Origin: a virus
Taxonomy: Duplodnaviria > Caudoviricetes
Virus record (IMG/VR): IMGVR_UViG_3300042307_001090
Location: 1-62,007 of that record
Length of the DNA: 62,007 nucleotides
Reading direction: 5' to 3' (one strand)
Each line of letters begins with the position of its first letter. Position 1 is the stretch's first letter. The position numbers were made by a program, and so were the translations under genes. The notes under the pieces were generated by a model, which saw only the letters and a program-made list of their open reading frames with translations, was not told where the DNA came from and did no database searches. Shown here one piece after another: positions 3-36,279 of this stretch.

Positions 3-3000
3 ATGGAAGCGCCTTCACTGGAAGAGAAGCAGGCTGTGATGAAGTCGATGTGGTCTGATGAGCAAATGCGGGTAATGAATGGCGTAGCTCAACAGGCGGC
101 TTTTGCTGATTTGGATGCTGACATGCAGGCGTCTTACATAGAGCAAGGTTCTGGTGAAGGTGCTCAGATTCGTCGTCTGGAAGATGGCATGTTTGAGGTG
201 ACGACTCCTGACGGTGAGTTATTGGATAACACAAGCAGTCCTGATGCGGCTTTGGAGTTGGCGCGTGATTGGAATGCTGCCGATCAACTGAACGAGACTG
301 CGGCCATTGAAGACATGATTGGTTATGTCGAGAGCTTCCAAGAAGCAGGGCAGTCGATTGAGCTGATGGACAAGTCAAAGACGCTTCAGGATCGCGTTGA
401 TGCGGGTGACTTCACGCAAGAAGAGGCTGATGGGATTGTGCAGCTTTACACGGAAATGGGGCGGCTGAATGAAGGGGCAACGCCTGGCTCTGTTTTGATT
501 ACGGGTGAGAATGAAGTGACCAAGTATGATGCGCGTCGGCGTATCGTGTCGGACGTTTCACGCATCTATGACGGTGCAAGTCCGCTGACTGTGGTGGAAG
601 AGCACGCTGAGGGTTATCTGAAGCGGCGTCTGGCTGATGGTTCTGTGACGCTTGAAGACATTGTGCGGTGGCGTAAGAGCACGGGGAGCACTGTAACGGA
701 TGCTTCAGAGCGTGCGCTGATTGAGTGGTTTAGTGAGCAGTCACAAGCCTATCTGGTGGGCAAGTCGAACGCTGAAGCGTTGCCTGCTACCTTTCGCCAA
801 TTCCTGAGCAAGCTGCGGAAGTATCTCGGTAAGATTCTTGATCTGTCTGTTCGGCTGATGGATCTGGAAGCGTCTGGCAAGATGGATGGCAACTTTAAGA
901 CTCACCTGGCGCGGTCGGTGGGGCTGGATCAAGCTCACATTGATGCTCAAATGCGGGCTGAAGAGGTGGGGCAAATGGATGGGCGTGGCACTGAGCTTAT
1001 GGGGTGGCTGAAGGGCAAGCTGCCGCATCCTGATACGGCAAAGGCTAACGGTGAGCAACTGGCGGGTGAGCTGGCTACGGTGTGGGAGGGATTTAAGTCA
1101 CCACAAGCGGCGCGTGCGTTCTTTGCGCCAAAGGGTGTTTACACGCCACTGGATCAACTGGCTGGCATGGCACGGGATGACGGGTTTCCTTTCGAGACGG
1201 CTGATGATCTGTTGAAAGCCATTGATTCGTCACTGCGCGGCGAAGAGGTGTTTGCTGATGCTGGCACTGGTGCGACGTTCAGCCTGAGCGATTCACGGGC
1301 AAAGCCTGAAGACGCAAGCAACGTCACGGTGCTGCCTGATGGTGCGCAACTGGTCGGGCCTACTACGTTCAGCTTAACAGCCTATCATGGCACTCCTCAC
1401 AAGGTGGACAAGTTCAGCATGGACAAGATCGGAACGGGCGAGGGTGCGCAGGCTTACGGCTGGGGGCTTTACTTCGCGGAGAATAAAGCGGTGGGCGAAG
1501 AATATAGGAGGAGTCTATCAGACAACATGCTTTCGCGTGATGTTCTAAAGGAGTATTTTAAGGAAGGGGCTATCATACCGTCATATGGCGGCATGGATCG
1601 CGTTGTTAAATTAAATCTCGGTGTAGATGTCGCTAATTGGAGTGTGGACGTTCAAGCGGTTGTGCCTGACGGAAAAGGGGGGTGGAAAAAGGAAAGTGAT
1701 TATGGCACTGGAATCCGTAACCATAGCACTTATCCAAGTCCCAAAAATTTAGATAAGTTGGGAATAAAGAGGGGCAACCTGTATACCGTAGAGCTACTAC
1801 CAGACGCCGATGACTTCCTTGACTGGGACAAGCCACTGAGAGAGCAAAGCGATAAGGTTAAGGAGGCTTTGGCTAAGGTGGACAACCGGCTAGTTAAGGC
1901 TTTGGCTGAAGTTGCTGCTGGTGGTCGTCCTAGGGACGTAGCGGTAAGCCATGGGGTTAACGTGATAGACCTTTACCTAGGTTCTGGCGGTGCAATGGTG
2001 CAAACGCTAGGTGGTGACGCTGCGGCATCTAAGACGCTGGCGGCTGCTGGCATTCCAGGAATCCGCTACTTAGACGGAGCAAGCCGTGGCAAGGGTGGCA
2101 CGTCCAACTACGTCATCTTTGACGAGTCGCTTGTGAAGATCATCGAAGAGAACGGCAAGAAGGTGGAGCAAGCGGGGGCTACGTTCTCGCCGGCTGACAT
2201 CAGCGCGAAGTGGGAAGCGCGTGGCATCAAAAACCAAGTGAGCGAAAAGGGCGGGGTAATTACTCTGTCTTCAATTCGCGTGTCTGACACTGAGCAGGCC
2301 CAGGGTCTTGGCACGGCAGCAATGAAGGAGTTGACGGCCTACGCCGACAAAAGCGGGCAAATGATCGCGCTAACACCTTCAGTTGATTTTGGGGCGTCTT
2401 CGGTTGGACGGTTGCGAGACTTTTACAAGCGATTTGGCTTCGTGGAAAACAAGGGCAGGAACAAAGACTTCCGAGTCAGGGAGACGATGATTCGTGAAGC
2501 CAAGAAGGGCGGGAAAGCTGACATCACAATGGGCATGGAGTCGCTTGACCGTGCAAATGAGATTAAGGCAGTGATGCGGAAGCATAAGATTGCTGCGCGT
2601 GTGGCTGCTGCGGATCACCAAGGGGAAGCGTTCTCACCTGAAATGCGTAAGGCTATGGAAGACCGGCTTTATCGCGTGGTTCCCAATAAGGAAACGGTGG
2701 CTGAAGCGTTAAAGGTGGTAACGGAGAAGGGTGTTGGTAATGCGTTGGAGCTTGTTCTGTCACGAACCAGTACGCTCACGCCCAACGTGCAGGTTGCTCT
2801 TGGAATGGCACTGATGGAGCATTTCAATGCCAAGAAGCAGTTTGAGAAGGCGATTGAAGTAGGTGAGCGAGTGAATGAGTTGGGCACTGAGTTGGGGCGT
2901 GGTGTTCAGGCGTTCAGTCTGTTGGGCAACGTGCTCGATACTCCTGAAAAGGCTCAAATCTTCCTGTCTAATAAGCTGAAGAGCTTGGAAGCGGCTTTGC

Positions 3001-5825
3001 GTGAGCGTAAGCCGGTCATTGACGCATCCAAAGAGGTGTTGGCTAACGTGCAGGAAGAGGCGTTGAAGCTTTTGGAGAAATGGCTTGATGAGATTAACGG
3101 GGTTTCTGGTAAGCCGATGGCTTCACGGAAGGCTGTTAGAACTGAGGATTTGCCTGATATTACCTTCGCACTGAGCCAAGACGTGCGGAAGTCAGGCATT
3201 GTGTCGGTTGTGGCTCGTATGCTCAAGGAATCGGGTGCTGCGGAGACGCGGAAGGCACTGGTTGAGAAGTACGGCGACAAGGTTGCTCCTCATGTGGCTG
3301 ACATTCTCATTGAGGCACAAAAGCAACTGACGGCAAAGGCTGCGGCTAAGAAGGCGAAGCCAAAGGTGGATAAGCCTGGCGCTGCTGCTGAGGATAAAGG
3401 CAAAGATCGCAGTGGGCCACGGATGAGCGAAGAGGAGATTGATAACGCACTGGCTGAGATTCACGCCACGGGGCGCAAGGTAGGCTTCCAAGATCAAATG
3501 GTTGCCATTGAAGAGCATTTCCAAGGTAAGCGTATGACTGATGCTCAGATTGAGGACACGCTTGCGCTAGGGCGTGCAATGGGCATCGGTGGCACTACTA
3601 CCACGCTGGAAGGGTTTGATGACCTGGTTAAGCGGTTTGAGGATGAGGTAATCAACCGGCTGAAGGTGAAAGGTCATGATGCGCCAAAGTCGCTGCGTGA
3701 TGCCGTGCGGAAGCTGTTTGAAACCAAGGGCGTCAAGTTTACCCGTGAGGACATTGCGCGGGTGTTCGCTGAGAAGTTCAAAGTGCCAAAGGCAACGGAG
3801 ACGCAAAATAAGCGCCTAGTGGAGTTGGCTGAGAACATTCGGAGCACGCCTGAGTTTTCGACTGCTCGGACTGATGCAACGGTGGAGCTGATGAACCACG
3901 TCAATGAAATCCTGAAGCCGGTTGATTGGGTGGATATTGGTTGGTCACTTTGGTATGCCAACGTGTTGAGCGGGTATAACACCCATTTCCGCAATCTTTA
4001 CGCGAATACCTTAGAGCAAATGGTTTCGCTTCCATTGGAAGCAATGCGGGCGAATCCAGTTAAGACGCTGCAACTGATGCGTGAAATGCTTTACGGGGTG
4101 AAGGCTGGGGCGTCTATCGGCCTAGCTGAAGCCAAGAATCAGTTGAAGACGGGTGAAGCGTCGGTGTTGCAAACTGAGTCGAACAAGTTTGGCAGTTCCG
4201 GCACGTTGGAGCGGGTTGACTTCGCTGGTGGGCAGGCAAATCCGTTCAACTGGCTGAAGGTAGTTGGTCGTGCTCTGCGTGCGGAAGATTTGTTTGCCTA
4301 CGCAACGGCTCAGGAAGCCAAGGCGCGCATGGTTGCGTGGGAAATGGCTGACGCAAAGGGGCTGATTGGTGCGGAGCGTCAAGCTGAGGTTGAAAAGCTC
4401 TTAAACGCCACGGATGAGCAGATTGGTGACTTCGCTGAACGGGCTGCGCGTGAGTGGGATGGTCTGAGCGATGAGCTGAAGGCCAAGGGCAATCGTGAAC
4501 AGTGGGAAGCGCGACGGGTGAAAGAGCTGCGTCTGTTGGAGCGTGATGGTGCTCTGATTGAGCGGGCGAGTGAGTTTGCGGCGCGTGCTACGTTCAATTA
4601 CAAGCCTGATGGGTTTGTTGGGCTTATGGCGAACAGCTTGATTGATGTAATGAATGGGCTTGGTCGTGCTGATACGACTGGACAAGCTGAGGTTGTGCAA
4701 AAGGCACTGATGACGGCTCCTAAGTTGGTGGTGCCGTTTGTTCGGATTGTCGCCAATGTGCTTAATCGTGGCATTGATTACACGGGCATGGGCATTGCAC
4801 GGTCTGCTTTTGAAACTAAGCGAGTTGGGGCGGCTGCTGGTAAGAATGGGTTTGTTGCCAAGTCAGCCGATGAGCGGGCAATGGAGTTGAAGCGGGGCAT
4901 TTTCGGCATTGTTGCCTTGGGTGTGCTGTCCAGCCTGGCGAATCCTGACGATCCTGAGGCAGAGATTCAGATTCACGGCTCTGGTGCTGGCTCACGCGAG
5001 AAGAACCAGGCGCTTAACGGGCCGCGGTGGATGCCTTATTCAATCGAGTTCAGGGGCAAAGAAGGGTCTAAGTTTTACACCTTCCAATACAGCCCTTTGC
5101 TCATGGGGCTGGCCTTGGTTGGTAATTACCACGATGCGAAGCGTTATCGTAAGCTCGATGAAAAGGATTTGACTGAGCGCCTGGCGGTGGCGGCTGCTGG
5201 TGTTGGTTCGGTGCTGCTCGATCAGTCGTTTCTTTCCAATGCTGCCGATCTTGTGAACATGTTTGGACGTGATGGGCAGGTGTCCCAAAATGCGCTTTAT
5301 TCGTTCATGGGTCGCACCTTCAATCCTTCCACGGTAGCGATTCCGTTTTCGTCACTGCTGCGTCAATTGGAGCGTGACTTTGATCCAGTGCAGCGGAGTA
5401 AACCGGACATCAAAGCGGCGTTGTTCTCCAATGTGCCGGTTGCAGCACGGGCGAATGATCCAGCGTTGGACATTCTTGGGGATGCGATTGCGAACAGGCC
5501 GTTTGACTGGTTGGCGCGTGCGTCTGTCGATGGCACTCCTGAAGCGCGGATTTACCGTGCGTTTGGGGCTAAAGACCTGGTTCCTACGTCTGTCTGGTCT
5601 TACAAAGGCAAGATGGAGCCGGAACAGTTCTACCAATTCACCAAGGAGCGCGGTGCGTTGTTGAAGGAGTCGCTGATGCGCAATGATGCGGCGTTCCTGA
5701 AGTTAATCGAATCTTCCAACGAAGAAGTTGCTGCGAAGATTCTCGAAAACCTTTCTCGTTCGGCTACGCAAATGGCGCGAGTTCGGGTCGGCTATTTCCC
5801 TGAAGTTAAAACCAAAACCAAATAA
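3..5825 (+). CDS. Large polyvalent (DarB/LPD-type) phage protein, probably virion-ejected; ADP-ribosyltransferase-like and GNAT-like domains; possibly 5' partial
   Basis: 1940 aa ORF. ART-like motifs YHGTPH..F...IGTGEGAQAYGWGLYFAE and YVIFD (~1377-2155). GNAT-like QGLGT...LRDFYKRFGF (~2190-2500). Long helical C-terminus. Directly precedes a podovirus-type fibre gene. Confidence 0.75.
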   Translation: MEAPSLEEKQAVMKSMWSDEQMRVMNGVAQQAAFADLDADMQASYIEQGSGEGAQIRRLEDGMFEVTTPDGELLDNTSSPDAALELARDWNAADQLNETAAIEDMIGYVESFQEAGQSIELMDKSKTLQDRVDAGDFTQEEADGIVQLYTEMGRLNEGATPGSVLITGENEVTKYDARRRIVSDVSRIYDGASPLTVVEEHAEGYLKRRLADGSVTLEDIVRWRKSTGSTVTDASERALIEWFSEQSQAYLVGKSNAEALPATFRQFLSKLRKYLGKILDLSVRLMDLEASGKMDGNFKTHLARSVGLDQAHIDAQMRAEEVGQMDGRGTELMGWLKGKLPHPDTAKANGEQLAGELATVWEGFKSPQAARAFFAPKGVYTPLDQLAGMARDDGFPFETADDLLKAIDSSLRGEEVFADAGTGATFSLSDSRAKPEDASNVTVLPDGAQLVGPTTFSLTAYHGTPHKVDKFSMDKIGTGEGAQAYGWGLYFAENKAVGEEYRRSLSDNMLSRDVLKEYFKEGAIIPSYGGMDRVVKLNLGVDVANWSVDVQAVVPDGKGGWKKESDYGTGIRNHSTYPSPKNLDKLGIKRGNLYTVELLPDADDFLDWDKPLREQSDKVKEALAKVDNRLVKALAEVAAGGRPRDVAVSHGVNVIDLYLGSGGAMVQTLGGDAAASKTLAAAGIPGIRYLDGASRGKGGTSNYVIFDESLVKIIEENGKKVEQAGATFSPADISAKWEARGIKNQVSEKGGVITLSSIRVSDTEQAQGLGTAAMKELTAYADKSGQMIALTPSVDFGASSVGRLRDFYKRFGFVENKGRNKDFRVRETMIREAKKGGKADITMGMESLDRANEIKAVMRKHKIAARVAAADHQGEAFSPEMRKAMEDRLYRVVPNKETVAEALKVVTEKGVGNALELVLSRTSTLTPNVQVALGMALMEHFNAKKQFEKAIEVGERVNELGTELGRGVQAFSLLGNVLDTPEKAQIFLSNKLKSLEAALRERKPVIDASKEVLANVQEEALKLLEKWLDEINGVSGKPMASRKAVRTEDLPDITFALSQDVRKSGIVSVVARMLKESGAAETRKALVEKYGDKVAPHVADILIEAQKQLTAKAAAKKAKPKVDKPGAAAEDKGKDRSGPRMSEEEIDNALAEIHATGRKVGFQDQMVAIEEHFQGKRMTDAQIEDTLALGRAMGIGGTTTTLEGFDDLVKRFEDEVINRLKVKGHDAPKSLRDAVRKLFETKGVKFTREDIARVFAEKFKVPKATETQNKRLVELAENIRSTPEFSTARTDATVELMNHVNEILKPVDWVDIGWSLWYANVLSGYNTHFRNLYANTLEQMVSLPLEAMRANPVKTLQLMREMLYGVKAGASIGLAEAKNQLKTGEASVLQTESNKFGSSGTLERVDFAGGQANPFNWLKVVGRALRAEDLFAYATAQEAKARMVAWEMADAKGLIGAERQAEVEKLLNATDEQIGDFAERAAREWDGLSDELKAKGNREQWEARRVKELRLLERDGALIERASEFAARATFNYKPDGFVGLMANSLIDVMNGLGRADTTGQAEVVQKALMTAPKLVVPFVRIVANVLNRGIDYTGMGIARSAFETKRVGAAAGKNGFVAKSADERAMELKRGIFGIVALGVLSSLANPDDPEAEIQIHGSGAGSREKNQALNGPRWMPYSIEFRGKEGSKFYTFQYSPLLMGLALVGNYHDAKRYRKLDEKDLTERLAVAAAGVGSVLLDQSFLSNAADLVNMFGRDGQVSQNALYSFMGRTFNPSTVAIPFSSLLRQLERDFDPVQRSKPDIKAALFSNVPVAARANDPALDILGDAIANRPFDWLARASVDGTPEARIYRAFGAKDLVPTSVWSYKGKMEPEQFYQFTKERGALLKESLMRNDAAFLKLIESSNEEVAAKILENLSRSATQMARVRVGYFPEVKTKTK

Positions 5826-5830
5826 AGATT

Positions 5831-8383
5831 ATGTCCGTAACAAATGAAACGTATCGCGTGCAGGCCACGCTTGCCACTGCCATTCAAGCAATTCCCGTCA
5901 CGTTCTACTTCTTGGAACAAGACGATTTGATCGTTTACCAAACGGTTGCAGGGGTGGATACGCTGATGGCGCTGAACACTAATTACACCTTAACGGGTGA
6001 GGGCGTGGAAGCAGGGGGTACGCTGACCACCATTGGCGGAACTGTGGGGGCTGTTTGGACTATCGCACGGGCGGATGCACTCACCCAGTCGGAAGAGTTC
6101 ATTTACAGCGGTTCTTTGGCACCTTCTGCGGTTGAGCGTGGTTATGACCGGCTGGCGATGCAGATTCAGCGCATTTACAGCATGGCGGCACGTTCGATTC
6201 GCTTACCTGTGACCAATGCGGAAGGTGGAGAGCTGGCATTGAATGACCGCAAGGGCACCATCTTGGGGTTTGATGCGAGCACTGGCGCGGTGGAGTTCAC
6301 CACTAAGCAAAGTCTTTTAGACGATGCGGCTGCTGCTGCTGAGGCGGCTGCTCAGCCTTTGGTGGATGCTGCTGAAGCGGCTAAAACTGCGGCTGAGCTG
6401 GCTGAAACCAATGCCGAGACTGCTGAAGCTAATGCGGTTGCTGCGGCTGGCACGGCTGCGGATGACGCTGCTGCTGCGGTGGTGGTGAGCTTGACTGCTG
6501 CTGTTCAGGTCTTGACTGACACTGCCACGCTTCAGGCTGGTTTGTCTGCTGATAGTGCAGCGGATTCAGAGCTTGCCAAGGAAGCTGCGCAAGTGGCTCA
6601 GGTTGCTGCGGAGTTAGCTGAAACTAACGCTGAAACTGCTGAAGCCAATGCAGAGCAAGCGGTGATTGATGCTGCTGCACAGTTGGCGTTGGCTACCACG
6701 CAAGCGAACAATGCTGCGGGTTCTGCGTCATCTGCCAGTGCGTCGGCTGCTTCTGCCGACGCCAGCGCCACGGCTGCGCTCAACGCCATCAGCCAAGCCT
6801 ACAAAGGCGAGCTGGCGGGCGCGAGCGTCCCCGCCACCAGCACGACCAACGGCGACACCTACCGCATCACCTCGGCAGGCACGAGCCAGGGCAAGACGTG
6901 GGTGGTTGGTGACGCCGCGATCTACAACGGAAGCTCGGGCCAATGGACGCAGCTCACGGGCTTTTACATTTACGCCGACGCCGCCGACATCGCCAGCAAA
7001 GCGGCGCTGATCGAGCGCGAGGGCCTGCGGTTCGACGGCACGGCGGGCGCGGTGATTGGTGGCGGCGGGATTCCGGCTGTGGGGACTGGGGATTTTACGG
7101 TCTGGTTTATGATAAATCCCGGTGCTGCCTTCATACCACGATTTTTATTTGGAGCTTCTGGGGCGTTTGGGTTGCAGGCATTAAACGTTAGCGGCGGGCT
7201 TGAAGTTGTGAAAGTCGGCATTGCTAATATTGGTTCATCTTCAATCGTGTTTAGTGCGGGCCTACCTACCATAATTCACTATGTTAGAAGCGCAGGGGTC
7301 GGCTCTTTTTACCGTAACGGATCATTTGTTGATTCGATTACAGATACCACGAACTACACTGCTAGTTCCACGTTCATAAATTCAGAAATTGATGGAGTTT
7401 CAAATGCCAGCGCCAACACGTATGCTCATTTTGGGCACGCCAACTACGCCCTAACCCAGTCCGAAATCACGGCCCTAATCGGTCGCGGTCTGGTCACGCT
7501 GCCGGAGCAACGCGGCGGGAGTATGGTGAGCCTAATCCCATCTGGCAACGGCGCATCACTTGGAGCAACCGACGCTAATAACCTCACCAATTGGAGCGCA
7601 TATTTAGCAACTGGAAGCGTTGGTTCAGGAACGCGAACGGGTGGCGCTGGATCGTATTATGCGAGGTTCACCCGAGCGGGAATTGATTTTAATGCGTGGT
7701 ATAATCCGGCCAAAATAGTTTCAGTTAATCAAAAATACCTGATTCGCTTTTGGGCTAGGGCATCGGTATCAGGAAATATAAATTTTCAGATGCGATCAGG
7801 CGGAGCAGGTAGCAGTACTAGCGCCGCTTTTGCCTTAACTACCGCATGGTCACAATTTAGCTACACTTGTGTAGTTACCGCAAATACTACGATTGATCGC
7901 CTATCATTTGATATGGCGGGCATTGGTATCAACGGGGACTATTTTGATATAGACGATTTTGAAGTAATCCCCCTCGGCACGCTATTCGAGCAGGACAGCG
8001 GCCAGCGCAACGGCGGCTACATGATCCGCGACACCTCAGGCAACGGTCGCCACCTCGAACTACCCGAAACAGGCGTCTCGATTAACGACCCCGCCGACAC
8101 GGGATTTATCGAGTACACCCGCACCACGGACGGCTATCTCCTCGGCGACCGCCGCGTGATCCCATCCACTGGCTACCTAGTCGAAGTCGTCGCCACCGGC
8201 AACGGCACCGTGACCCTTGGCGAATCCGCAGGCACGCCCGCCAACGTGTGCGCCTCGGTCACGCTCACCAGCACGCCGCAGATTCTTCCCATCCTAGTGA
8301 CCCAAACGAGCACGGGTAAGCTCTACTGCGACCTCGGCACCGCCACCACCGCCACCTTCAAGATCCGCCTCCGCGCCGTTTAA
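5831..8383 (+). CDS. Tail fibre/receptor-binding protein with T7 gp17-like N-terminal adaptor, Ala-rich stalk, and LamG-like and carbohydrate-binding-like domains (probably chimeric)
   Basis: N-terminus TFYFLEQDDLIVY...NYTLTG...ERGYDRLAMQIQ is typical of podoviral fibre adaptors. AETNAETAEANA repeats, then beta-rich domains. 7441-7684 is shared with the fibre at the window end. Confidence 0.8.
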   Translation: MSVTNETYRVQATLATAIQAIPVTFYFLEQDDLIVYQTVAGVDTLMALNTNYTLTGEGVEAGGTLTTIGGTVGAVWTIARADALTQSEEFIYSGSLAPSAVERGYDRLAMQIQRIYSMAARSIRLPVTNAEGGELALNDRKGTILGFDASTGAVEFTTKQSLLDDAAAAAEAAAQPLVDAAEAAKTAAELAETNAETAEANAVAAAGTAADDAAAAVVVSLTAAVQVLTDTATLQAGLSADSAADSELAKEAAQVAQVAAELAETNAETAEANAEQAVIDAAAQLALATTQANNAAGSASSASASAASADASATAALNAISQAYKGELAGASVPATSTTNGDTYRITSAGTSQGKTWVVGDAAIYNGSSGQWTQLTGFYIYADAADIASKAALIEREGLRFDGTAGAVIGGGGIPAVGTGDFTVWFMINPGAAFIPRFLFGASGAFGLQALNVSGGLEVVKVGIANIGSSSIVFSAGLPTIIHYVRSAGVGSFYRNGSFVDSITDTTNYTASSTFINSEIDGVSNASANTYAHFGHANYALTQSEITALIGRGLVTLPEQRGGSMVSLIPSGNGASLGATDANNLTNWSAYLATGSVGSGTRTGGAGSYYARFTRAGIDFNAWYNPAKIVSVNQKYLIRFWARASVSGNINFQMRSGGAGSSTSAAFALTTAWSQFSYTCVVTANTTIDRLSFDMAGIGINGDYFDIDDFEVIPLGTLFEQDSGQRNGGYMIRDTSGNGRHLELPETGVSINDPADTGFIEYTRTTDGYLLGDRRVIPSTGYLVEVVATGNGTVTLGESAGTPANVCASVTLTSTPQILPILVTQTSTGKLYCDLGTATTATFKIRLRAV
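7441..7684 (+). repeat. 244-bp direct repeat, copy 1 (copy 2 at 61764-62007)
   Basis: Read by eye; identical apart from 3 substitutions (7474/61797, 7483/61806, 7667/61990). Confidence 0.95.
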
Positions 8384-16546: not shown

Positions 16547-17565
16547 CCCCCGCCTACCGCATCATCGCCGAGGGCAAGGACGTGACGGCCAATTTCAATG
16601 GCCGCCTGATTGACCTGGCCATTGTTGACGACTCTGGCAGTCGCGCGGCCGACACGCTTTCAATCGTGGTTGAGGATTCAGGCAGCATGATCGAGGTGCC
16701 AGCAAGCGGTGCCCAGCTCAGGGTTGCTATCGGCTACGCCGGCGCGTTGACCGAAATGGGCGTGTTCGTCGTCGATGAAGTCTCCATTGAAGGGCCGCCG
16801 GACCGGATCACTATTCGCGCGGCCGGCGCCCCGCTGATTAAGTCCGAGCTGTTTGCCCCCCTGCACACTCAGAAGTCGCGCTCATGGCCTACGCCCAGCA
16901 CGCTCGGCGTTCTTGTGGCCGTCATCGCCTACGAGTCGGGGCTGACTGCCGAGCTTTCCAACACCGTGAAGGAAATTCAGCTCCCGCACATCGACCAGAC
17001 CAACGAGTCGGACATCAACCTGCTGACGCGCATCGCCGCCGAGCGGGGCCTGATCGTAAAACCCACGTTCGGGAAAATCGTGGTGCTCTCCATTGACGAG
17101 GCGAAGACCGCGAAGGGCCGCGACATTCCGCGTTTTGCCATTGATAAATCCAGCGTGTCGACGTGGAGCTTCCGCAGTTCAAACCGCAGGCGCTTTCAGT
17201 CGGTGGTCACTTCGTGGCACAACCAGGCTACCGGCCAGCCCGTCGAAGTGGGCGTCGGTTCAGGCGATCCCGTTTATCGATCGACCGTGACTTATGCCAA
17301 CGCGCAGACCGCGCAGGCCGCCGCGTCCTCATTCCTGCGCAATTTCCGGCGCACAGGCACGGAGTTCACGCTGACGATGCCAGGGCAGCCGACATTCATT
17401 GCTGAGGGCCGCGCGACGCTAAGCGGATTCCGCAATGAGATGAATGACGGCGAGTGGAAATTTACCCGGGTTGAGCACCGAATCAGCCGACAGGGCTACA
17501 ACACGGTCGTGACCGGCACCGCGGTCAAAGAGGAGTTGCCGCAGCCTGCGCAGGCCGCCGGATAA
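16543..17565 (+). CDS. Baseplate hub / late control protein D (P2 gpD-like)
   Basis: MTPAYRI..EGKDVT...ADTLSI...HIDQTNESDINLLTR motifs. Confidence 0.9.
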   Translation: MTPAYRIIAEGKDVTANFNGRLIDLAIVDDSGSRAADTLSIVVEDSGSMIEVPASGAQLRVAIGYAGALTEMGVFVVDEVSIEGPPDRITIRAAGAPLIKSELFAPLHTQKSRSWPTPSTLGVLVAVIAYESGLTAELSNTVKEIQLPHIDQTNESDINLLTRIAAERGLIVKPTFGKIVVLSIDEAKTAKGRDIPRFAIDKSSVSTWSFRSSNRRRFQSVVTSWHNQATGQPVEVGVGSGDPVYRSTVTYANAQTAQAAASSFLRNFRRTGTEFTLTMPGQPTFIAEGRATLSGFRNEMNDGEWKFTRVEHRISRQGYNTVVTGTAVKEELPQPAQAAG

Positions 17566-17684
17566 GATGAACCACCGGGCCGTTGCTTTGCATCTGCGCT
17601 GCCTGCGAGTTCACCTCGGGCGCGCATGGTTTGCTGCGCGCGGGGCATGGCGGTCAATGTGGCAGCGTGCCGGTGAATAGGCGC

Positions 17685-17712
17685 AAAAAAGCCTCACTGA
17701 TTGAGGTGAGGC
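17685..17712 (-). terminator. Rho-independent terminator of the leftward operon
   Basis: Stem GCCTCAC/GTGAGGC (17691-17712) with A6 on its left, i.e. U6 on the minus strand, between convergent operons. Confidence 0.65.
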
Positions 17713-17865
17713 GCAGGGATTTTACAACTCGTCTGGGGTTTTAACCCCATAAAAAAAAGTCCACTGGCTTCCAGTTTAGCAGCTTAACGCATGGCCTAAC
17801 CGGAACCGCGCAAAGCTGACTTTTTTACGGTTACTCGGTGGTGTGGCCTGCCTATCTGGAAAATG

Positions 17866-17887
17866 TTCCGCCTACACAACGTTGGGC
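17866..17887 (+). other. attI-like integron recombination site
   Basis: CGCCTAC-ACAAC-GTTGGGC: degenerate L box, 5-bp spacer, GTTRRRY R box. No attC hairpin. Heads the attC array. Confidence 0.5.
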
Positions 17888-17926
17888 AATGGAATCGGAG
17901 CCGTATTGGGCCGTGTTACGGCTAGA

Positions 17927-18652
17927 TTAAAAAAGGGTTGTTTGTGCGGTTTCACGGGCGATGCGTTCTTGCGCGGCCGCGAAGTAGTCGGGATCAAGCT
18001 CGCAGGCCGTCAGGTGTGCGCCGAAATAGTGGCACGCGATTGCGTGCGAGCCGGAGCCGAGGTGCGTATCGAGGATGCGCTGGCCGGGCTTGGCGTAGTT
18101 TTCGAGAAGCCAGCGGTAGAGCTTCACCGGCTTCTGTGTCGGGTGTATCGTGCCCTCTAGCGTGAGTTCTACGCGGTTCATCGTTACCACGCGCAGGGCG
18201 CGGTCGAACGACGTGAAGGCAAGCTCGCCGTCACTGTTACAGATGCGCTGGCCCTTATCCCAAAATATCCACCCCATGCTTTTCGGCAAGTGGCCGGGGT
18301 AGTAGTTCGCGCCCCAGATGATTTGGTCTTTGCTCACGCGGTAGAGTTCGCAGAAGTAGTCAGCGCCGGGCGGCTTGGCGTCCCATCCTTTGTATTCATG
18401 CGCCTTCCTTGCGTAGCTCCTGCCCGGCCTGCACGTTTTTGATTCCGTCGCACCGTCGCGCCCGATGCAGTAGGGCGGATCGACGATAGCCAGATCGAAG
18501 TGCTTGTCGGGATAGCGGCGCATGAGAGCCATGCAGTCTTCGTTGGTCACGGACACAGAGCCCAACCAGGCGCTAGAGCCAACAGCCCTAGTCTCCACGT
18601 TGGCGACCGGCTCAGGGCTTTCGAGAGTCAGGTTTTCAGTTTCTTGTTTCAT
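17927..18652 (-). CDS. DNA N6-adenine/N4-cytosine methyltransferase (cassette 1)
   Basis: DLAIVDPPY, IIWGANY, HPTQKPVKLY, ILDTHLGSGS motifs (beta-type order). Confidence 0.92.
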   Translation of the reverse strand: MKQETENLTLESPEPVANVETRAVGSSAWLGSVSVTNEDCMALMRRYPDKHFDLAIVDPPYCIGRDGATESKTCRPGRSYARKAHEYKGWDAKPPGADYFCELYRVSKDQIIWGANYYPGHLPKSMGWIFWDKGQRICNSDGELAFTSFDRALRVVTMNRVELTLEGTIHPTQKPVKLYRWLLENYAKPGQRILDTHLGSGSHAIACHYFGAHLTACELDPDYFAAAQERIARETAQTTLF

Positions 18653-18691
18653 GTTATTTTGTCGGGCTGCGGCTCAGCTTGAACGTTAGCC
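18560..18691 (+). other. attC site 1 (132 bp)
   Basis: R'' GCCCAAC, 5 nt, L'' GCTAGAGC ... L' GCTCAGC, 6 nt, R' GTTAGCC. Extra base in L''; inner stem CAGCCC/GGGCTG. Confidence 0.85.
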
Positions 18692-19528
18692 AATGCAGAA
18701 ACCGGAAGGCGGCGTCACCGTGATTTGCATGTCGCCAAGCGGAAATTGCGTGACGCCGCGCAGGTGTTTCCGCACGTCCACGGGGTCGGCCTGCGTCTTC
18801 CTGCGGTGCGCCCGCACCCAATGGCAGATTGCCGCCCGTCGCCCTGATTCCGTCATCGGTGCGTCACGAAGCGCGCACAGCTCTTTGATTTTCTCCTCGG
18901 TTGAGTAGAGCGTGAAGGCGGAGGACTCACGAATAGTCACGCTCCAATTCACCTTCATGTCCTCGACTACGGAGGACATGAGCACGAGCGTTTGCGTCAT
19001 CTCTTTTTCTAGGGTGCGTTCGCGCCCCTGAATCACCGCGTTTTTATGTTGGGGCACCGGGCACGATAGCGCGATCTTTCGCGCCTTGTTCCATCCGAAT
19101 ACGTTCACTTGGATGTCTTCGCGGCCCGACTTATACACGGTGCGCTGGCACGAGTCCCAGAATACGTCACACCCTGGTCGGATGAAAGCGCGAGGGCGTG
19201 TCTTCCTCCGCCGCATCCCGTTCCATCGGTAGGCGATTTCACCGCTGCACGCTTGCAGCAGCTCGAACCGCTCGAACTGGTCGGAGGGGTCTGCCATTAA
19301 CATACTGGCGTCAGCACAGAACAGGCGCTCCTCGTTGAAGACATCCTGAAAGAATAAGGGGTTTTCAGGGAGGTATGGTTTTGCATCGTATTCAGTCCAT
19401 ACGAGATCCCACCCGCCGCCTCGCTTTTCGCGGTGCTCCCGTTGTTTGTCGGAGGGTTTGAAGTGAAGCATGGCCATGAGGACTTCATCGGCCACGTCAT
19501 CGACGGCATTTAGTATTTCGGTATTCAT
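18686..19528 (-). CDS. Hypothetical phage protein with C-terminal HWVRAH...VRKHLRG motif (cassette 2)
   Basis: 280 aa ORF; its stop codon is supplied by the R' box of attC site 1. Confidence 0.7.
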   Translation of the reverse strand: MNTEILNAVDDVADEVLMAMLHFKPSDKQREHREKRGGGWDLVWTEYDAKPYLPENPLFFQDVFNEERLFCADASMLMADPSDQFERFELLQACSGEIAYRWNGMRRRKTRPRAFIRPGCDVFWDSCQRTVYKSGREDIQVNVFGWNKARKIALSCPVPQHKNAVIQGRERTLEKEMTQTLVLMSSVVEDMKVNWSVTIRESSAFTLYSTEEKIKELCALRDAPMTESGRRAAICHWVRAHRRKTQADPVDVRKHLRGVTQFPLGDMQITVTPPSGFCIG

Positions 19529-19568
19529 AGGTTTTTGGTTTTCGTAGCGTTAAAAATCGGAAGACGGA

Positions 19569-19628
19569 GGCTAACCAGTCGGTAGAGCACAACGGCGCTA
19601 CGCGCCGTGGCTCACCTTTTTGTTAGCC
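19569..19628 (+). other. attC site 2 (60 bp, classic 59-base element size)
   Basis: GGCTAAC CAGTC GGTAGAGC ACAACGGCGC TAC GCGCCGTG GCTCACC TTTTT GTTAGCC. Confidence 0.9.
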
Positions 19629-19996
19629 AGAGGGAGAACCGACAAGTCCACCTTGGCTCCGGCGTCGAGGTATAGGTTCCATGCGCGGCGTCCGTGGGGC
19701 TTTGATTGGGCTCCCGTGATGTCGCGGTCTTTTGTTGCCATGATCTGCGCGACGCCACCCTCGTCGATGCCTGCGCGTCGTAGTAGGTCATCATAACCAC
19801 ACGAACCGATGTGGTTCATGAGTGCGTCTTTCAGTGCCTCGCCGTCGATAGCTTTGTCCGTCCACGGCACAGCGATCAGATCGAGGTCTGCTGTCACTGT
19901 TCCGTGAATCGCTAGCGCGTAGCCATTATTTCGGGCCACGTCACAAAGCGCAGGATATAGACAGGCGAAGAAGGGTGCGAAGGTTGCAGGTTTCAT
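19598..19996 (-). CDS. Hypothetical protein, possible minimal nucleotidyltransferase fold (cassette 3)
   Basis: GYALAIHGT...DLDLIAVPW and distal VDLS resemble the hG[S/T]..DxD..D NTase pattern. Confidence 0.6.
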   Translation of the reverse strand: MKPATFAPFFACLYPALCDVARNNGYALAIHGTVTADLDLIAVPWTDKAIDGEALKDALMNHIGSCGYDDLLRRAGIDEGGVAQIMATKDRDITGAQSKPHGRRAWNLYLDAGAKVDLSVLPLANKKVSHGA

Positions 19997-20010
19997 GAAA
20001 GGGAGACAGA

Positions 20011-20104
20011 GGCTAACCAGGCGCTACAGCGAACGACCACGCTAGTCACTCAAATGGTTCGGGTGTCGGGGAGAGGTGGTTGTCTCTGAGCTTAAACGTT
20101 GGGC
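20011..20104 (+). other. attC site 3 (94 bp)
   Basis: R'' GGCTAAC, 5 nt, L'' GCTACAGC ... L' TCTGAGC, 6 nt, R' GTTGGGC. Inner stem GACCAC/GTGGTT. Confidence 0.8.
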
Positions 20105-20478
20105 AATGCGGAATCGGACTTGGGAAAGTAGGCCGCCCACTCTGCTAGCGCTGGGCCTCCGCCTTGGTAGCCGTGGCCGCGAGCGCATTCCAAAGCCTTT
20201 GCCACGCGCCATCCTGCTTCTCGCAGCCGTGCGTTCTCGCGCTCAAACTCGGCGCATAGAGCAACTGGAGCCGCATCATAATCCAGCGTCGCACGAGCTT
20301 CGCGGATGGCGCGGCGCAGGCGCTTGGCGGCAGGATTGCATGTGCATGACTCCTCGGTCACTGGCCAATGCTCTTGCTTAAAGTCGATGCAGTTGCCGCT
20401 GTGGCTTGGCTCGAACTGTGCGACCAATGCAAGCAGCAGCTCGCCAAGCGCCTTGGTGTGGGGGTGAATGGCGCTCAT
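20092..20478 (-). CDS. Hypothetical protein
   Basis: Start MSAIHPH overlaps the upstream stop; ends inside attC site 3. Confidence 0.6.
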   Translation of the reverse strand: MSAIHPHTKALGELLLALVAQFEPSHSGNCIDFKQEHWPVTEESCTCNPAAKRLRRAIREARATLDYDAAPVALCAEFERENARLREAGWRVAKALECARGHGYQGGGPALAEWAAYFPKSDSALPNV

Positions 20479-20738
20479 TGGCTGGCCTTTCTCGCGGTGT
20501 CCGGCTTGTGCAGGCACCAAATGCGCGTGCCGCCGTCTGCTTTAACCATTCGCGCAGACCATACCCACCCAGTATTTACCGAGCGGATCGTTGTAAGAAT
20601 TGTGTGAACGCGACTCGGTGAATAATCCTTTATTGGAATCAAAATTGAGTCACCGACATCCATTTGAAGCAGCGGCCATATCGGGTCTCTCGATGAAGCC
20701 CTGCCAGCCATTGGAGGAATATTTTTATCAATCTTCAT
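20475..20738 (-). CDS. Hypothetical small DNA-binding-like phage protein
   Basis: MKIDKNIPP...WPLLQMDVGDSILI...GTRIW pattern common in phages; ATGA-coupled. Confidence 0.65.
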   Translation of the reverse strand: MKIDKNIPPMAGRASSRDPIWPLLQMDVGDSILIPIKDYSPSRVHTILTTIRSVNTGWVWSARMVKADGGTRIWCLHKPDTARKASQ

Positions 20739-21043
20739 TTCGCGGCCTCCTTCTCAGCCTGCGTGGCGAGGATTAAGGCGCAACAGGCGGCGCGCGGGAG
20801 TGACTTGGATGCAAAGCTGCAATCTTCCTCATGGAGATGAACTTCAAAAATGCCAAGGCAGGGAAGTATATCTATGCCGCATCTATACTTAGCCAAGTAC
20901 GGCAGCACGGCGTCCATCGACGTGGCGTAAGGATCATGGACTATACGATGCCCAAGCGAGTCGGTGAAAAACTTGATTCCCGCCACCTCGACGGCGAACA
21001 CTGCCGACAGTTCGGAGTCGGTGAGTTGGTTTAAGTCGCTCAC
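20735..21043 (-). CDS. Phage ABA-sandwich-like domain protein
   Basis: EL...FAVEV.G...YATSMDAV...SLPRAACCALILA pattern. Confidence 0.55.
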   Translation of the reverse strand: MSDLNQLTDSELSAVFAVEVAGIKFFTDSLGHRIVHDPYATSMDAVLPYLAKYRCGIDILPCLGIFEVHLHEEDCSFASKSLPRAACCALILATQAEKEAAK

Positions 21044-25237: not shown

Positions 25238-26056
25238 TTAGGCGGTGCGAACAATGGCGGACGAGACCGGCCAATGGCGAACGCCGGATAACGTGGCGCC
25301 CTCGGGTAGCGACTTCAGCGCGGCCTTTAGCTCGGCGCGCTTCACCGTGAGGGTCACGAGGGATGGATTGATGGCATACAGCGCCGCGATGTCCGTAACC
25401 TCGAAGTCAATGTCATTGCGCGTGCTGACTCCAGAAGGTGTCGCGACCTGCGCGCTGGCGACAACGAGGGCCTGCGCGGCGAGCTGTGCGTCTGCTTTGG
25501 CTTTCGCGGTGGCGGCCTCCTGCTCGGCGCGTAGGCGGGCATCAGCGGCGGCCCGCTCGGCCTGTGCACGTTTCAATGCGTCGGTTTCCTGCGCGGCCTT
25601 TGCGGCGGCTGCGCGTGCATCAGCTTCGGCTTTCTCGCGGGCCTCGCGCGCCTGGCGATCGGCTTCTTCACGGATGCGGCGAGCCTCAGCTTCGGCAGCG
25701 GCACGGGCGGCAGCGGCTTGGCGTTCCTGCTCGGCGTTGAACTCGCCAATTAACAAGCCGATGCGCTTGGCCTCGGCAACGATTTCGGTGGTGAGGTCTT
25801 TTTTGAGCTGGTCGATCTTGCGGCCGAGCTCAAGGACCGGCGCCTTCGCGGTGGCGTGTGAATCGTTGATGGCTTTCTCGAAGGACTTGAGATCGCGCAG
25901 GAGGTTAGTGGCGCGGACGCCAGACTCCGGGCTAGCGATGCGCTGGCCTTTTTTGGCGATGGCAAGCAGCTCGTCGCGCTTGGCGATGGCTGCGGGTAGG
26001 GCCGAGACCTGAGTGGATTCGGCGCCGGTGATGGTAATGAGTGCGTTGGTGTTCAT
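25238..26056 (-). CDS. Ala-rich coiled-coil phage protein (recombination-region type)
   Basis: 272 aa with long E/A/R coiled coil and C-terminal FEVTD domain. Confidence 0.7.
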   Translation of the reverse strand: MNTNALITITGAESTQVSALPAAIAKRDELLAIAKKGQRIASPESGVRATNLLRDLKSFEKAINDSHATAKAPVLELGRKIDQLKKDLTTEIVAEAKRIGLLIGEFNAEQERQAAAARAAAEAEARRIREEADRQAREAREKAEADARAAAAKAAQETDALKRAQAERAAADARLRAEQEAATAKAKADAQLAAQALVVASAQVATPSGVSTRNDIDFEVTDIAALYAINPSLVTLTVKRAELKAALKSLPEGATLSGVRHWPVSSAIVRTA

Positions 26057-27750
26057 GCGAAAGAAAGTTCAGGCTGTTCAATGGTGGTGGTAGTGGTGGT
26101 GGTGGCAGCGGCCTGCACGGTGGACGGTGCGCCGAGCATCGGCAGCGTTCCTGCGCCGACCTGCAGGTTGCGGCCGAAATACTTTGCGGCGGTCTTGTCG
26201 CCCAGCTCTTCAGTCGCCTGAGCGCCGTTGCGAATCCACCCGCGCAGGCGTCCGGTCTCGACGTTGAGCGCGAGGGCAAACTTCTGGTTGAGCCGGATAT
26301 GGATGTTGCGATTGAGGAATGCGCGCACGTCAAACAAGACCTCGCGCTGGCCGTCCACCGTCGCCCAGAACTCCTCGCGAGTGCCGCTCGTCCAGTTGCG
26401 CCGGCCTTGGTAGGTCAGCCGGGCGTCATTGGTGTCACCCATGAAGCCGAGCCCGTGCGCGACCGTCAGCATGTCGCCCATAAAATCAGCGGCGGACTGG
26501 TCGAGGCCGCTATCGTAGGAGCCCGTCGGCCGGACGCCGCCCATGTGCTGAAGCACGATCCGGTACTCAAGCGCGATGTGCGTAGGCTTCTGGTCATCCG
26601 AGCAGTAGCGCCAGCGGTCGAAGGTGAACACCCGCTCGTTCGACTTATAGTTCTTCACGTTGGCCTTGCCGACCATCGAGTCAAAGGTCTCCAGCAGCTG
26701 CTCGTTTATGTGAGTGTTGGCGTTTTTCATCACCCACATAATTACTGCGTGAATATTGGAGACGGAAAAATCAACCGCTCCGGATCGATTGAGCGTGTTG
26801 AGCATCGCCTGGCGCTTCTTGGAGGTGAGCCGGTTGGTCACCGACTTCATGTGCGAGAAAAGCTCCTGCCAGTACGTGTTGCGCAGGCCGGCAAGCCGGG
26901 CCTTGAGGCATCCCATGATCCGGACCGGCGAAACGTCGAACTCCTTAAGCAGGTCAACGTCGAGCTGCTTCACGAGGTCGTAGTTCTTGCGGACGTGGTC
27001 AAGGTCTTCGTTGTAGAGAGCGACCAACAGGTCGGGGTAATTGGCACCAACGACCAGGGCGTCCATCTTGGAGTTCCTGCGGGTGCCCTTTTCATGATCG
27101 CCGACGGTGGCTTTGTCGGCTGAAAACTTCTCGCGCAGGTCAGCAAACTGCGCCTGGGCGAACCGATCAAACGCGTCGTCCTTCTCGCGCGACAGCTCTA
27201 TGCGGATCAGGTGAACCTTGGCGCGGGCTGCGCGGTCCTCGGCGTCGAGAAAATCAAACGAGCCTACGATGTGGTGCTTGGCCTCGCGGTATTCGAGGGC
27301 GTTCTTGATGTCGATCGACGCCTCCCAGCGTTGCGGGATAGCGAGGTAAACAAGGCGCGACGACGACTCGCGAATGATCTTCGTGGCCCAGTCGGCAAAC
27401 TCAGAGTAGGGCGGGTTGCAGAACGTCACCTCGACCTGCTTGGCGACAAGCGACTGTTCGTGAAACTCGGTGCCGACGATGAAGATTTCGTTATCCATTT
27501 GCTCGCAAAGGATCGGCGACTTCTCAATCGCATATAGGGTCGAAAACTTGGCCTTGTCGCGAAGCGCGCGCAGGACCTTGCCATTGCCTGCGCCGATGTC
27601 CAGCACGCTGGAAATGTCGTGATAGGCGCGCCAGTGCGCGTGCCGCATGCTGTCGATGTCGGCGATCAGCTTGGCGATGATCTCGTTGGTGGTCGGGTAG
27701 AACTCGTGGTCTTGACCGGCCTGTTTGAGTTGGGTGACGAGGGCGTTCAT
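26053..27750 (-). CDS. N6-adenine DNA methyltransferase with DUF4942-like domain
   Basis: EFYPT, VLDIGAGNG, FCNPPY, AEDRAARAKV, F.N.NIH motifs. Confidence 0.85.
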   Translation of the reverse strand: MNALVTQLKQAGQDHEFYPTTNEIIAKLIADIDSMRHAHWRAYHDISSVLDIGAGNGKVLRALRDKAKFSTLYAIEKSPILCEQMDNEIFIVGTEFHEQSLVAKQVEVTFCNPPYSEFADWATKIIRESSSRLVYLAIPQRWEASIDIKNALEYREAKHHIVGSFDFLDAEDRAARAKVHLIRIELSREKDDAFDRFAQAQFADLREKFSADKATVGDHEKGTRRNSKMDALVVGANYPDLLVALYNEDLDHVRKNYDLVKQLDVDLLKEFDVSPVRIMGCLKARLAGLRNTYWQELFSHMKSVTNRLTSKKRQAMLNTLNRSGAVDFSVSNIHAVIMWVMKNANTHINEQLLETFDSMVGKANVKNYKSNERVFTFDRWRYCSDDQKPTHIALEYRIVLQHMGGVRPTGSYDSGLDQSAADFMGDMLTVAHGLGFMGDTNDARLTYQGRRNWTSGTREEFWATVDGQREVLFDVRAFLNRNIHIRLNQKFALALNVETGRLRGWIRNGAQATEELGDKTAAKYFGRNLQVGAGTLPMLGAPSTVQAAATTTTTTTIEQPELSFA

Positions 27751-36012: not shown

Positions 36013-36279
36013 ATGAACGACATCAAATCACGAATCGCCGCAGCCTGCGCGAACACCGCGCCGCGCACCAAGGCCCGCAACTTAGCCCTCGCCGCTGTGC
36101 GCTGGGTTATTAAATCAGAGCAGGGAAACGCCTACATAGGGCAGGCCGGCCTTTCCTCCGTCCTTGTCGCCCGCGAGCACGCCACCGTGTTTGATGGCCG
36201 AGACAACGAGGAAATGAAGATCGCTTTTTTACGCGCCATTACCGCAGACTACTCGCTCACCATTGAGCTCGCAGCATGA
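36013..36279 (+). CDS. Hypothetical protein
   Basis: 88 aa; GTTATG start; coupled to the methyltransferase. Confidence 0.65.
   Translation: MNDIKSRIAAACANTAPRTKARNLALAAVRWVIKSEQGNAYIGQAGLSSVLVAREHATVFDGRDNEEMKIAFLRAITADYSLTIELAA

Follow-up and report, generated by a model that had tools for sequence, protein, structure and literature searches.

A Probable Integron-Type Cassette Array with Back-to-Front Cassettes in an Integrase-Less Lake-Water Phage

Introduction

Can a phage without an integrase keep an integron-type cassette array, and can the recombination sites of such an array also serve the expression of its genes? This question is raised by a locus of a lake-water phage (Duplodnaviria; Caudoviricetes; IMG/VR virus record IMGVR_UViG_3300042307_001090). 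The whole record of 62,007 nt (CheckV completeness 100%), called the window below, was analyzed. Its attC sites and cassettes lie among leftward DNA-metabolism/accessory genes on the minus strand that include an N6/N4 DNA methyltransferase (MTase). An original prediction, made from the sequence of the window, held that these attC sites double as translation signals, and that the cassettes are a dedicated reverse family adapted to phage expression and not random captures from a host integron. With a probability of roughly 70%, the region is an integron-type cassette array in an integrase-less phage, on which the integron integrase (IntI) of the host would act in trans and whose cassettes would be read by a leftward operon.

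Results

Three attC Sites and No Integrase

Four core sites were located in the window, three of which belong to complete sites:

18560..18691, plus strand: attC1, 132 nt; R'' GCCCAAC at 18560-18566, R' GTTAGCC at 18685-18691; 19.7 bits in the covariance model described below
19569..19628, plus strand: attC2, 60 nt, canonical hairpin; R'' GGCTAAC at 19569-19575, R' GTTAGCC at 19622-19628
20011..20104, plus strand: attC3, 94 nt, last of the array; R'' GGCTAAC at 20011-20017, R' GTTGGGC at 20098-20104
17881-17887, plus strand: fourth core site, GTTGGGC

All coordinates of sites and open reading frames (ORFs) given in the original prediction were recovered on the window. The core boxes follow the consensus (R'' RYYYAAC, R' GTTRRRY), with GGCTAAC and GTTAGCC deviating at one position and AAC and GTT being kept, and the lengths of 132, 60 and 94 nt fall inside the 57-141 bp range of attC sites. 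In attC1, R'' GCCCAAC is followed by the spacer CAGGC and L'' GCT[A]GAGCC, and on the far side GGCTCAGC is followed by the spacer TTGAAC and R' GTTAGCC. As predicted, each of the three sites has A as its extra L'' base (GCT[A]GAGCC in attC1, GGT[A]GAGC in attC2 and GCT[A]CAG in attC3), and the flanks are conserved, with ACAGA or ACGGA ahead of R'' and CAATG after three of the four core sites. The view that A at the bulge is a phage-type trait did not hold, since the same A/T is common to host and phage copies. The attC repeats were also recovered mechanically by a repeat search (families D1 and D3).

A pattern derived from the three copies of the window yielded clustered matches in several other viral contigs. 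From the 34 sites found outside the window, 28 were aligned (sites of 132, 116, 115, 103 and 47 nt and one duplicate were left out), and a covariance model was built from these 28 sites of five other viral contigs, free of window sequence. The RNAalifold consensus comprises a 7-bp R box, an unpaired spacer of 5/6 nt, an L box with a bulge at 16, a further stem and an AA bulge at 22-23, and compensatory changes occur in 10 of its 20 predicted pairs. Applied to the window, the model scored attC3 with 80.7 bits (E 2e-18), attC2 with 39.1 bits (E 9e-8) and attC1 with 19.7 bits (E 0.009, local match), and the next match in the window had an E of 0.46. The fold of attC2 had a z of -4.4, and 0 of 200 shuffles folded equally well. 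Nivina 2016 gives the attC layout as a bulge at 16, about six pairs and, on the bottom strand, a T at 23/24. The family fits this layout with one exception: as its first bulged base, the bottom strand has T or C in place of the usual G. Judged by boxes, layout and model scores, the three sites of the window are genuine attC sites. They also have close counterparts elsewhere: near-copies of attC1 are 92% identical in contig G006 and 96% in L111, one of attC3 is 94% identical in G007, and attC3 is 91-94% identical to sites of other viral contigs.

A tyrosine recombinase was not found in the 62-kb window, and the TIGR02249 model of the integron integrase gave 0 matches in the window and in the viral contigs G006-G010; as a control, this model responded to Xer-type proteins in 14 of 14 control genomes. 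With three sites in 1.6 kb and no integrase, the locus is a cluster of attC sites lacking integrases (CALIN; at least two attC and no integrase nearby), and not a complete integron, in which intI adjoins the array.

Cassette Boundaries and the Host Type of the Sites

The array divides into three cassettes, with a further ORF to the right of the last site:

17882..18685, plus strand: cassette 1, from TTGGGC to the G of R'; MTase ORF at 17927-18652, minus strand (Pfam PF01555, PHROG 67)
18686..19622, plus strand: cassette 2; ORF2 at 18686-19528, minus strand, 280 aa
19623..20098, plus strand: cassette 3; ORF3 at 19598-19996, minus strand, 132 aa, phage family phrog_35913
20092-20478, minus strand: ORF4, right of the last attC; stop TAA at 20092-20094 in the attC3 spacer ahead of R'

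In integrons, the last six bases of R' belong to the next cassette. The R'' of a cassette should therefore complement the preceding R' and not its own. This was observed for 3 of 3 cassettes of the window (in cassette 1, R'' GCCCAAC complements GTTGGGC at 17881 exactly), for 29 of 34 viral neighbor pairs and for 59 of 68 host pairs. Where the two readings differ, the preceding R' prevailed by 15 to 2 in the viral pairs and by 46 to 1 in the host pairs. The cassette-boundary rule thus shows, at the level of sequence, that the arrays were built by integrase recombination.

When species-representative genomes were searched with a 19-mer pattern, the matches came overwhelmingly from metagenome-assembled genomes (MAGs) of Opitutaceae and other Verrucomicrobiota. 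Each of the five host genomes tested encoded an IntI above the TIGR02249 cut-off (347-420 bits; cut-off 265), and dense arrays of model matches adjoined IntI and pointed away from it. By these matches, the phage attC sites are of host type, i.e., they are assigned to the family of Opitutaceae chromosomal integrons. Between contigs, phage sites are closer to one another than to any host site found. The phage arrays share a distinct attC subfamily.

One host attC cluster, in a Nibricoccus genome (L211, 285000-305000), was seen far from any IntI. It holds a 2.5-kb cassette twice, each copy with a 421-aa bottom-strand ORF whose GC content at third codon positions (GC3) is 0.79.

A Platform Resembling Host attI Sites Heads the Array

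The sequence to the left of cassette 1 is shared between phages:

17680..17887, plus strand: platform heading the array, ending in ..TTCCGCCTACACAACG followed by TTGGGC, with the crossover at 17881/17882; conserved in 8 viral contigs

About 200 nt (17680-17881, including a terminator hairpin) recur with the same boundary in G006, G008, G009 and G010, and the conservation halts exactly between the G and the TT of the core site. Pattern scans added three contigs, giving the platform in eight in all; an array follows in seven, and the eighth contig ends about 120 nt past the site. From the ten matches of a short platform pattern, three (L367, L368 and L375) were discarded as chance matches. The stretch 17794-17887 was rejected as a fourth attC, with 9.6 bits (E 3.2) and the R''-like AAC lost in three of five contigs.

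For the best-scoring Nibricoccus intI, the first cassette begins at a site about 540 nt upstream of the gene; the last 25 nt of the platform match this site at 23 of 25 positions. The 18-mer motif TTCCGNCTACACAACGTT (at most one mismatch) was found in 4 of 201 genomes of the family, with five hits, and a control pattern gave 0; for three of the five hits, a divergently oriented IntI lay inside the 3-kb locus. The attI of the Nibricoccus-type IntI carries TTCCGACTACACAACGTT. The platform is therefore read as an attI-like docking site, a proposal based on its position and on this likeness.

Phage Cassettes Are Built Back to Front

The longest ORF of a cassette gave its orientation, provided that it was no shorter than 50 aa and no less than 1.3 times as long as the longest ORF on the opposite strand. 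The following counts were obtained, bottom and top referring to the strands of the attC sites:

Six viral arrays (n = 34): bottom 19, top 3, ambiguous 12
Six host array loci from three genomes (n = 68): bottom 2, top 46, ambiguous 12, no ORF 8
L275 and L309 (n = 11): bottom 8, top 1, ambiguous 2
Metagenome contigs with phage-type attC (n = 12): bottom 7, top 2, ambiguous 3

A search of metagenome contigs with a type-specific attC pattern yielded only seven short loci, one of them identical to G010. Viral and host arrays differed in orientation with a Fisher p of 4.5e-12. The strands also differed in content, with PHROG matches for 6 of 45 bottom-strand ORFs versus 0 of 36 top-strand ORFs (p 0.03). 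While host forward ORFs most commonly start 10 nt past the crossover, the stops of phage reverse ORFs tend to offsets of 0 (TTA of R'), -7 (spacer TTAAAC) or -19. A leader motif (..TTAGTTATTCGGAA..) stands just ahead of R'' in 27 of 40 viral sites versus 6 of 77 host sites.

Thus, the claim of dedicated reverse cassettes not captured from a host integron was borne out in part. The phage cassettes are a distinct reverse kind; "not host integron" was too strong, the attC family being that of Opitutaceae. The back-to-front build offers a simple, testable rule to tell phage-adapted from bacterial cassettes in metagenomes.

In two phage arrays other than that of the window, the attC bottom strand encodes RNA ligases as cassette genes (PF09414, phrog_548; L200, 11871-12545; L203, 231-917).

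Cassette ORFs End in the Neighboring attC Sites

The predicted overlaps at the ends of the ORFs were all found. The stop of ORF2 is the TTA of the attC1 R' (TAA at 18686-18688). ORF3 runs through R', spacer and L' of attC2 to a TAG at the apical loop (19598-19600), so that its last nine residues and the stop are encoded by attC2. ORF4 ends inside attC3, with its last five codons (ALPNV) and the stop overlapping R' and spacer; it overlaps the upstream gene (20475-20738) by 4 nt, and both G006 and G008 have cassette ORFs with weak similarity to it (38-40% over about 62-65 aa).

The full-length homologues of ORF2 with 63-71% identity (P0122-P0126, together with P0121 of the window) share the same end position in 6 of 6 and vary in the last residue, and a seventh homologue with 50% identity has a different tail. 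The core of the ORF3 family ends in ..KVDLSV[ML]P[RL]; the tails beyond differ by context and read PLAN.. in the window and its closest relatives. The attC-coded tail of ORF3, variable as it is among homologues, looks like passive read-through, and stops appear to be supplied passively by whichever attC lies over the cassette boundary.

For ORF2, no Pfam or PHROG match was obtained even at E 1, and its homologues had no Pfam domains. A protein Atlas places ORF2 (18686-19528) near viral clusters in which 20-38% of members are AcrVA2-like; with a score of 0.87 against a bar of 0.9, this is a lead only.

The MTase Leader and Putative Translation from attC

As predicted, the ATG of the MTase (18652) lies in the loop of attC1, and codons 1-31 (MKQETE...AVGSSAWLG) are antisense attC. 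The search for an N-terminal motif on antisense attC that the original prediction had proposed recovered GVGS..[WL]LG in 12 of 36 sampled MTase homologues, and the motif maps to L''-spacer-R'' wherever the DNA was on hand. It lies on an attC in the window, G006, L275, L286 and L309, and its A/D alternation mirrors the spacer variants CAGGC and CAGTC. The leader is not tied to one gene. The 31-codon leader of the attC1 type is fused to the N6/N4 MTase in the window and is in frame with an unrelated methyltransferase (phrog_757) in L111; in G006, it forms a 40-codon ORF that ends 13 nt before a different gene. In six L275 cassettes, ORFs start inside the attC loops in differing frames. The start in the attC1 loop thus looks like a reusable module, and a leader common to unrelated methyltransferases would be a concrete case of a recombination site doubling as coding and start sequence.

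Several MTase genes stand on other or partial sites. In L286 (2480-2600), a fossil attC keeps its R'' and L boxes as MTase coding/leader sequence and has lost R'. At 2501 in L301 and L302, R' is lost as well, and only L' and the spacer survive (L301) as MTase leader/coding sequence. In L313, L314 and L316, another attC family of lower GC (ACCTAAC...GTTAGCA/GTTATAG) also holds the start of a homologous MTase in its loop, and an in-frame ATG lies right beside the R'' complement. Among MTase homologues, P0023, P0036, P0046, P0051 and P0067 are near-identical to the window protein (17927-18652) in the first ~60 and last ~75 residues and differ in the middle; they look like mosaics swapping the target-recognition part.

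The strongest competing explanation is that the overlap at the start arises from ORF calling. The MTase would then start at or after R'' (TTG at 18565, GTG at 18556 or 18550), and ATG 18652 would be unused or would begin a short regulatory peptide. Many close homologues have 197-212 aa without the extension, and the TTG in the R'' complement aligns with the Met of short forms such as that of L280. PHROG and Pfam matches cover none of the first 32 residues, and the G006 leader is not fused to any gene, stopping nine codons after R''. Against such a downstream start, the frame that begins with the loop ATG crosses attC without a stop in the window, L275, L286, L309 and L111, as it does in the second attC family (L313/314/316), and the leader is in frame with an unrelated MTase. 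Homologues that have other attC types, or no attC, still carry an [FL]xLE motif near the N-terminus; between the window and G006, its Leu and Thr codons differ by synonymous changes. Moreover, the A/C-rich context ..aaataacATG at 18652 resembles the other starts of this phage that lack a Shine-Dalgarno motif. On balance, a downstream start is less likely than not, and we infer translation from ATG 18652.

Shine-Dalgarno sites were rejected as the "translation signal" provided by attC, such motifs being recognizable for 16 of the 52 genes of the window and for none of the cassette genes. Gene starts in the window have A/C-rich, G-poor leaders, often ..taac(c)ATG, and those of the cassette genes are alike. 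A role of attC sites as translation signals is plausible, although they may merely overlap the ends of the ORFs.

The Array in Assemblies and Metagenomes

In the probable source run, one contig covers 16500-21500 without differences. Identical pieces from an independent lake-water run bridge R' of attC1 (18635-19076) and attC3 (19646-20442), by which the array is not an assembly artefact. In all four runs analyzed for depth (X1-X4), the attC3 bin (20007-20173) was 5-18 times deeper than its neighbors and had other flanks attached; the summed contig depth was 68-102 over attC3 and 4-16 beside it. Parts without cover in runs X3 and X4 were kept out of the interpretation. Depth and the many foreign flanks indicate that the attC3-type site family is abundant and stands on many other cassettes in lake-water communities.

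Three joints were considered as excision products and rejected. Those at 18583>20013 and 18582>20089 have sides of less than 30 nt, and that at 18687>20015 stems from a high-depth foreign element.

Genomic Setting of the Array

The plus strand carries P2-like tail genes (sheath, tube, tape measure, gpU, gpX and gpD) up to 17565. A block of minus-strand genes extends from 17927 to about 31750. Besides the N6/N4 DNA methyltransferase and small unknown ORFs, it includes genes for an SLT lysozyme, an AAA_24 protein and a PD-(D/E)XK exonuclease. Between the tail genes and the array lies a terminator:

17691..17712, minus strand: intrinsic terminator hairpin GCCTCAC...GTGAGGC followed by TTTTTT (terminator scan)

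This hairpin (17712-17691) is the best minus-strand terminator, is located downstream of the last cassette gene and is kept with compensatory changes in five phage contigs. It would end the leftward transcript past the last cassette gene and is possibly two-way, given an A-tract on its opposite side. A promoter-like site was not found in 17300-20900 by a sigma-70 consensus scan, the only scan made, which is weak evidence against an integron cassette promoter (Pc). The array is thus probably the tail end of a leftward operon, as its gene order and terminator suggest. Other array-bearing contigs have tail-fibre or tail genes on the attC top-strand side, and on the opposite flank dUTPase, RuvC-like, primase and DnaC-like genes that are co-directional with the reverse ORFs. 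Relatives of gpD among viral contigs are only 26-33% identical, so there is no sister genome with an empty or different array for comparison.

Elsewhere in the window, two very large ORFs lie upstream of the tail genes (3-5825, 1940 aa; 5831-8383, 850 aa). Outside the array, 26053-27750 and 36276-37685 hold two more genes of methyltransferase type, which encode a DUF4942/Methyltransf_23 protein and a C5 cytosine methylase.

Discussion

How the Array May Work

An integron-type array that is served by the host remains the preferred reading. It draws on the identity of the sites, the boundary rule, the orientation bias, the homology of the platform and the reuse of the leader. We infer that the infected cell supplies IntI in trans, and that this enzyme would insert, remove and exchange cassettes both at the attC sites and at the platform. 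No promoter would act from the platform side; transcription would enter from the opposite end and read through the cassettes. Only ORFs on the attC bottom strand would then be expressed, and such cassettes carry attC ahead of the gene. The back-to-front cassettes would form a pool common to these phages. Their build would be compact, with ORFs starting in or just after their own attC and ending in R' or the spacer across the boundary, and the attC1 loop ATG with its 31-codon leader would have been joined to different genes.

More tentatively, and with the odds somewhat against its full extent, a group of freshwater Opitutaceae phages may keep an "inverse integron": a mimic of the host attI without integrase or Pc, and a private pool of attC-first cassettes read from the operon of the phage. 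The host integrase would be used to trade probably counter-defence genes (methyltransferases, RNA ligases and possibly anti-CRISPR-like genes), and some attC loops would by now be portable starts.

Several observations weigh against the preferred reading. The whole-sequence folds of attC1 and attC3 were no better than those of shuffles (z +0.7 and +1.2), so that support for these two sites rests on the covariance model. An attC closing the array to the right of ORF4 was not found. The orientation counts rest on longest ORFs, which left 12 of 34 cassettes ambiguous in the viral arrays and 12 of 68 in the host arrays; the host arrays come from three genomes only and hold duplicated cassettes, so that their counts are not fully independent. 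Host attC sites reached at most 64 bits in the phage-derived model, as compared with 80.7 bits for attC3 of the window, which is likewise outside the model set; the actual host and its integron have thus not been found. The likeness between the phage platform and host attI is strong over about 25 nt and weak over the ~85 nt aligned, and the 208-nt platform, searched as DNA, had no match in the 201 genomes of the family. Two of the five host hits of TTCCGNCTACACAACGTT had no IntI in the locus, one of these loci being cut by a contig end. Finally, no cassette-loss joint at the crossover between G and TT was seen in the contigs of four runs, and contigs drop rare variants.

Passive capture has a low probability. 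A piece of a host array would have entered the phage by illegitimate or homologous recombination, the array would be inert, and the overlaps between ORFs and attC would be incidental. The attC family is that of the host, the phage has no integrase, and the variable attC-coded tail of ORF3 has the likely look of accidental read-through; the available text of Qi et al. 2023 (PMC9892861) proposes such routes for phage attC clusters. Against this, host arrays are forward by 46 to 2, whereas phage arrays are reverse by 19 to 3. In addition, the phage arrays have in common a leader motif that few host sites show and a platform ending at the crossover, their attC sites from different contigs are nearer to each other than to any host site found, and cassette ORFs match phage protein families.

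That the repeats are phage-specific intergenic hairpins (terminators or regulatory stem-loops) is very improbable: they sit between genes of one operon and the terminator scan picks attC2 on the plus strand, but the same family adjoins IntI in 5 of 5 host genomes, the boundary rule holds, the bulge and spacer layout is that of attC, and there are no T-runs on the transcribed (minus) strand.

Comparison with Known Systems

Chromosomal integrons contain a minority of reverse-oriented cassettes with their own promoter (toxin-antitoxin), which stabilize arrays and whose ORF lies opposite to the attC top strand. The phage arrays, by comparison, have the reverse orientation as the norm, and the operon of the phage would drive the expression of their cassettes.

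The sedentary chromosomal integrons of Opitutaceae (Nibricoccus and other MAGs) have the same attC family, including A at bulge 16, and the same boundary rule, and one host attI type shares its crossover-proximal sequence with the phage platform. They differ in that intI is present, the ORFs are forward with starts about 10 nt past R', most attC sites have a length of 99 or about 60 nt, and the leader motif is rare.

Clusters of attC sites in phages have already been published; the platform, with its match to host attI sites, is an addition of the present analysis. In its main text, without supplements, Qi 2023 (Front Microbiol, PMC9892861) described integrase-less phage attC clusters with methyltransferase cassettes and their experimental recombination by IntI1. 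The likeness is close: attC sites and cassettes in intI-less phages, N6_N4 methyltransferase cassettes, a proposed use of the host integrase and an anti-restriction benefit. The cassettes there are co-oriented as in bacteria, or the sites are divergent, and the words "reverse", "antisense" and "opposite" do not occur in that text; supplements apart, it describes neither an attI-like platform common to integrase-less phages nor ORF starts inside attC. In the searches made of the literature on integrons and phages, supplements aside, no phage array surfaced that lacks an integrase and combines an attI-like head with reverse cassettes.

Short ORFs in recombination sites have a precedent. According to the part of the review PMC8876359 that was available, ORF-11/ORF-18 of attI1 and short ORFs in attC drive cassette translation on the top strand. 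Shared with the phage leader are a recombination site with a start codon, a stop from the neighboring core site and coupling or fusion to the cassette gene; ORF-11/ORF-18, as described there, act on the top strand, in the direction of Pc, in class 1 integrons, whereas the attC bottom strand is used here. The phage leader has 31 codons and can be fused in frame to an enzyme.

Integrons are presented as stores of bacterial anti-phage defence genes in the available part of a preprint (2024.07.02.601686). If phages keep integrase-less arrays with a copy of the host docking site, bacteria and phages would rely on one recombination system in their arms race. A further 2024 preprint is said to treat integrons as stores of anti-phage defence genes as well. 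The array suggests that phages exchange accessory genes by means of the integron machinery of the host, and its cassettes, with attC ahead of the gene where those of the Opitutaceae integrons have forward ORFs, bear on how cassettes are born.

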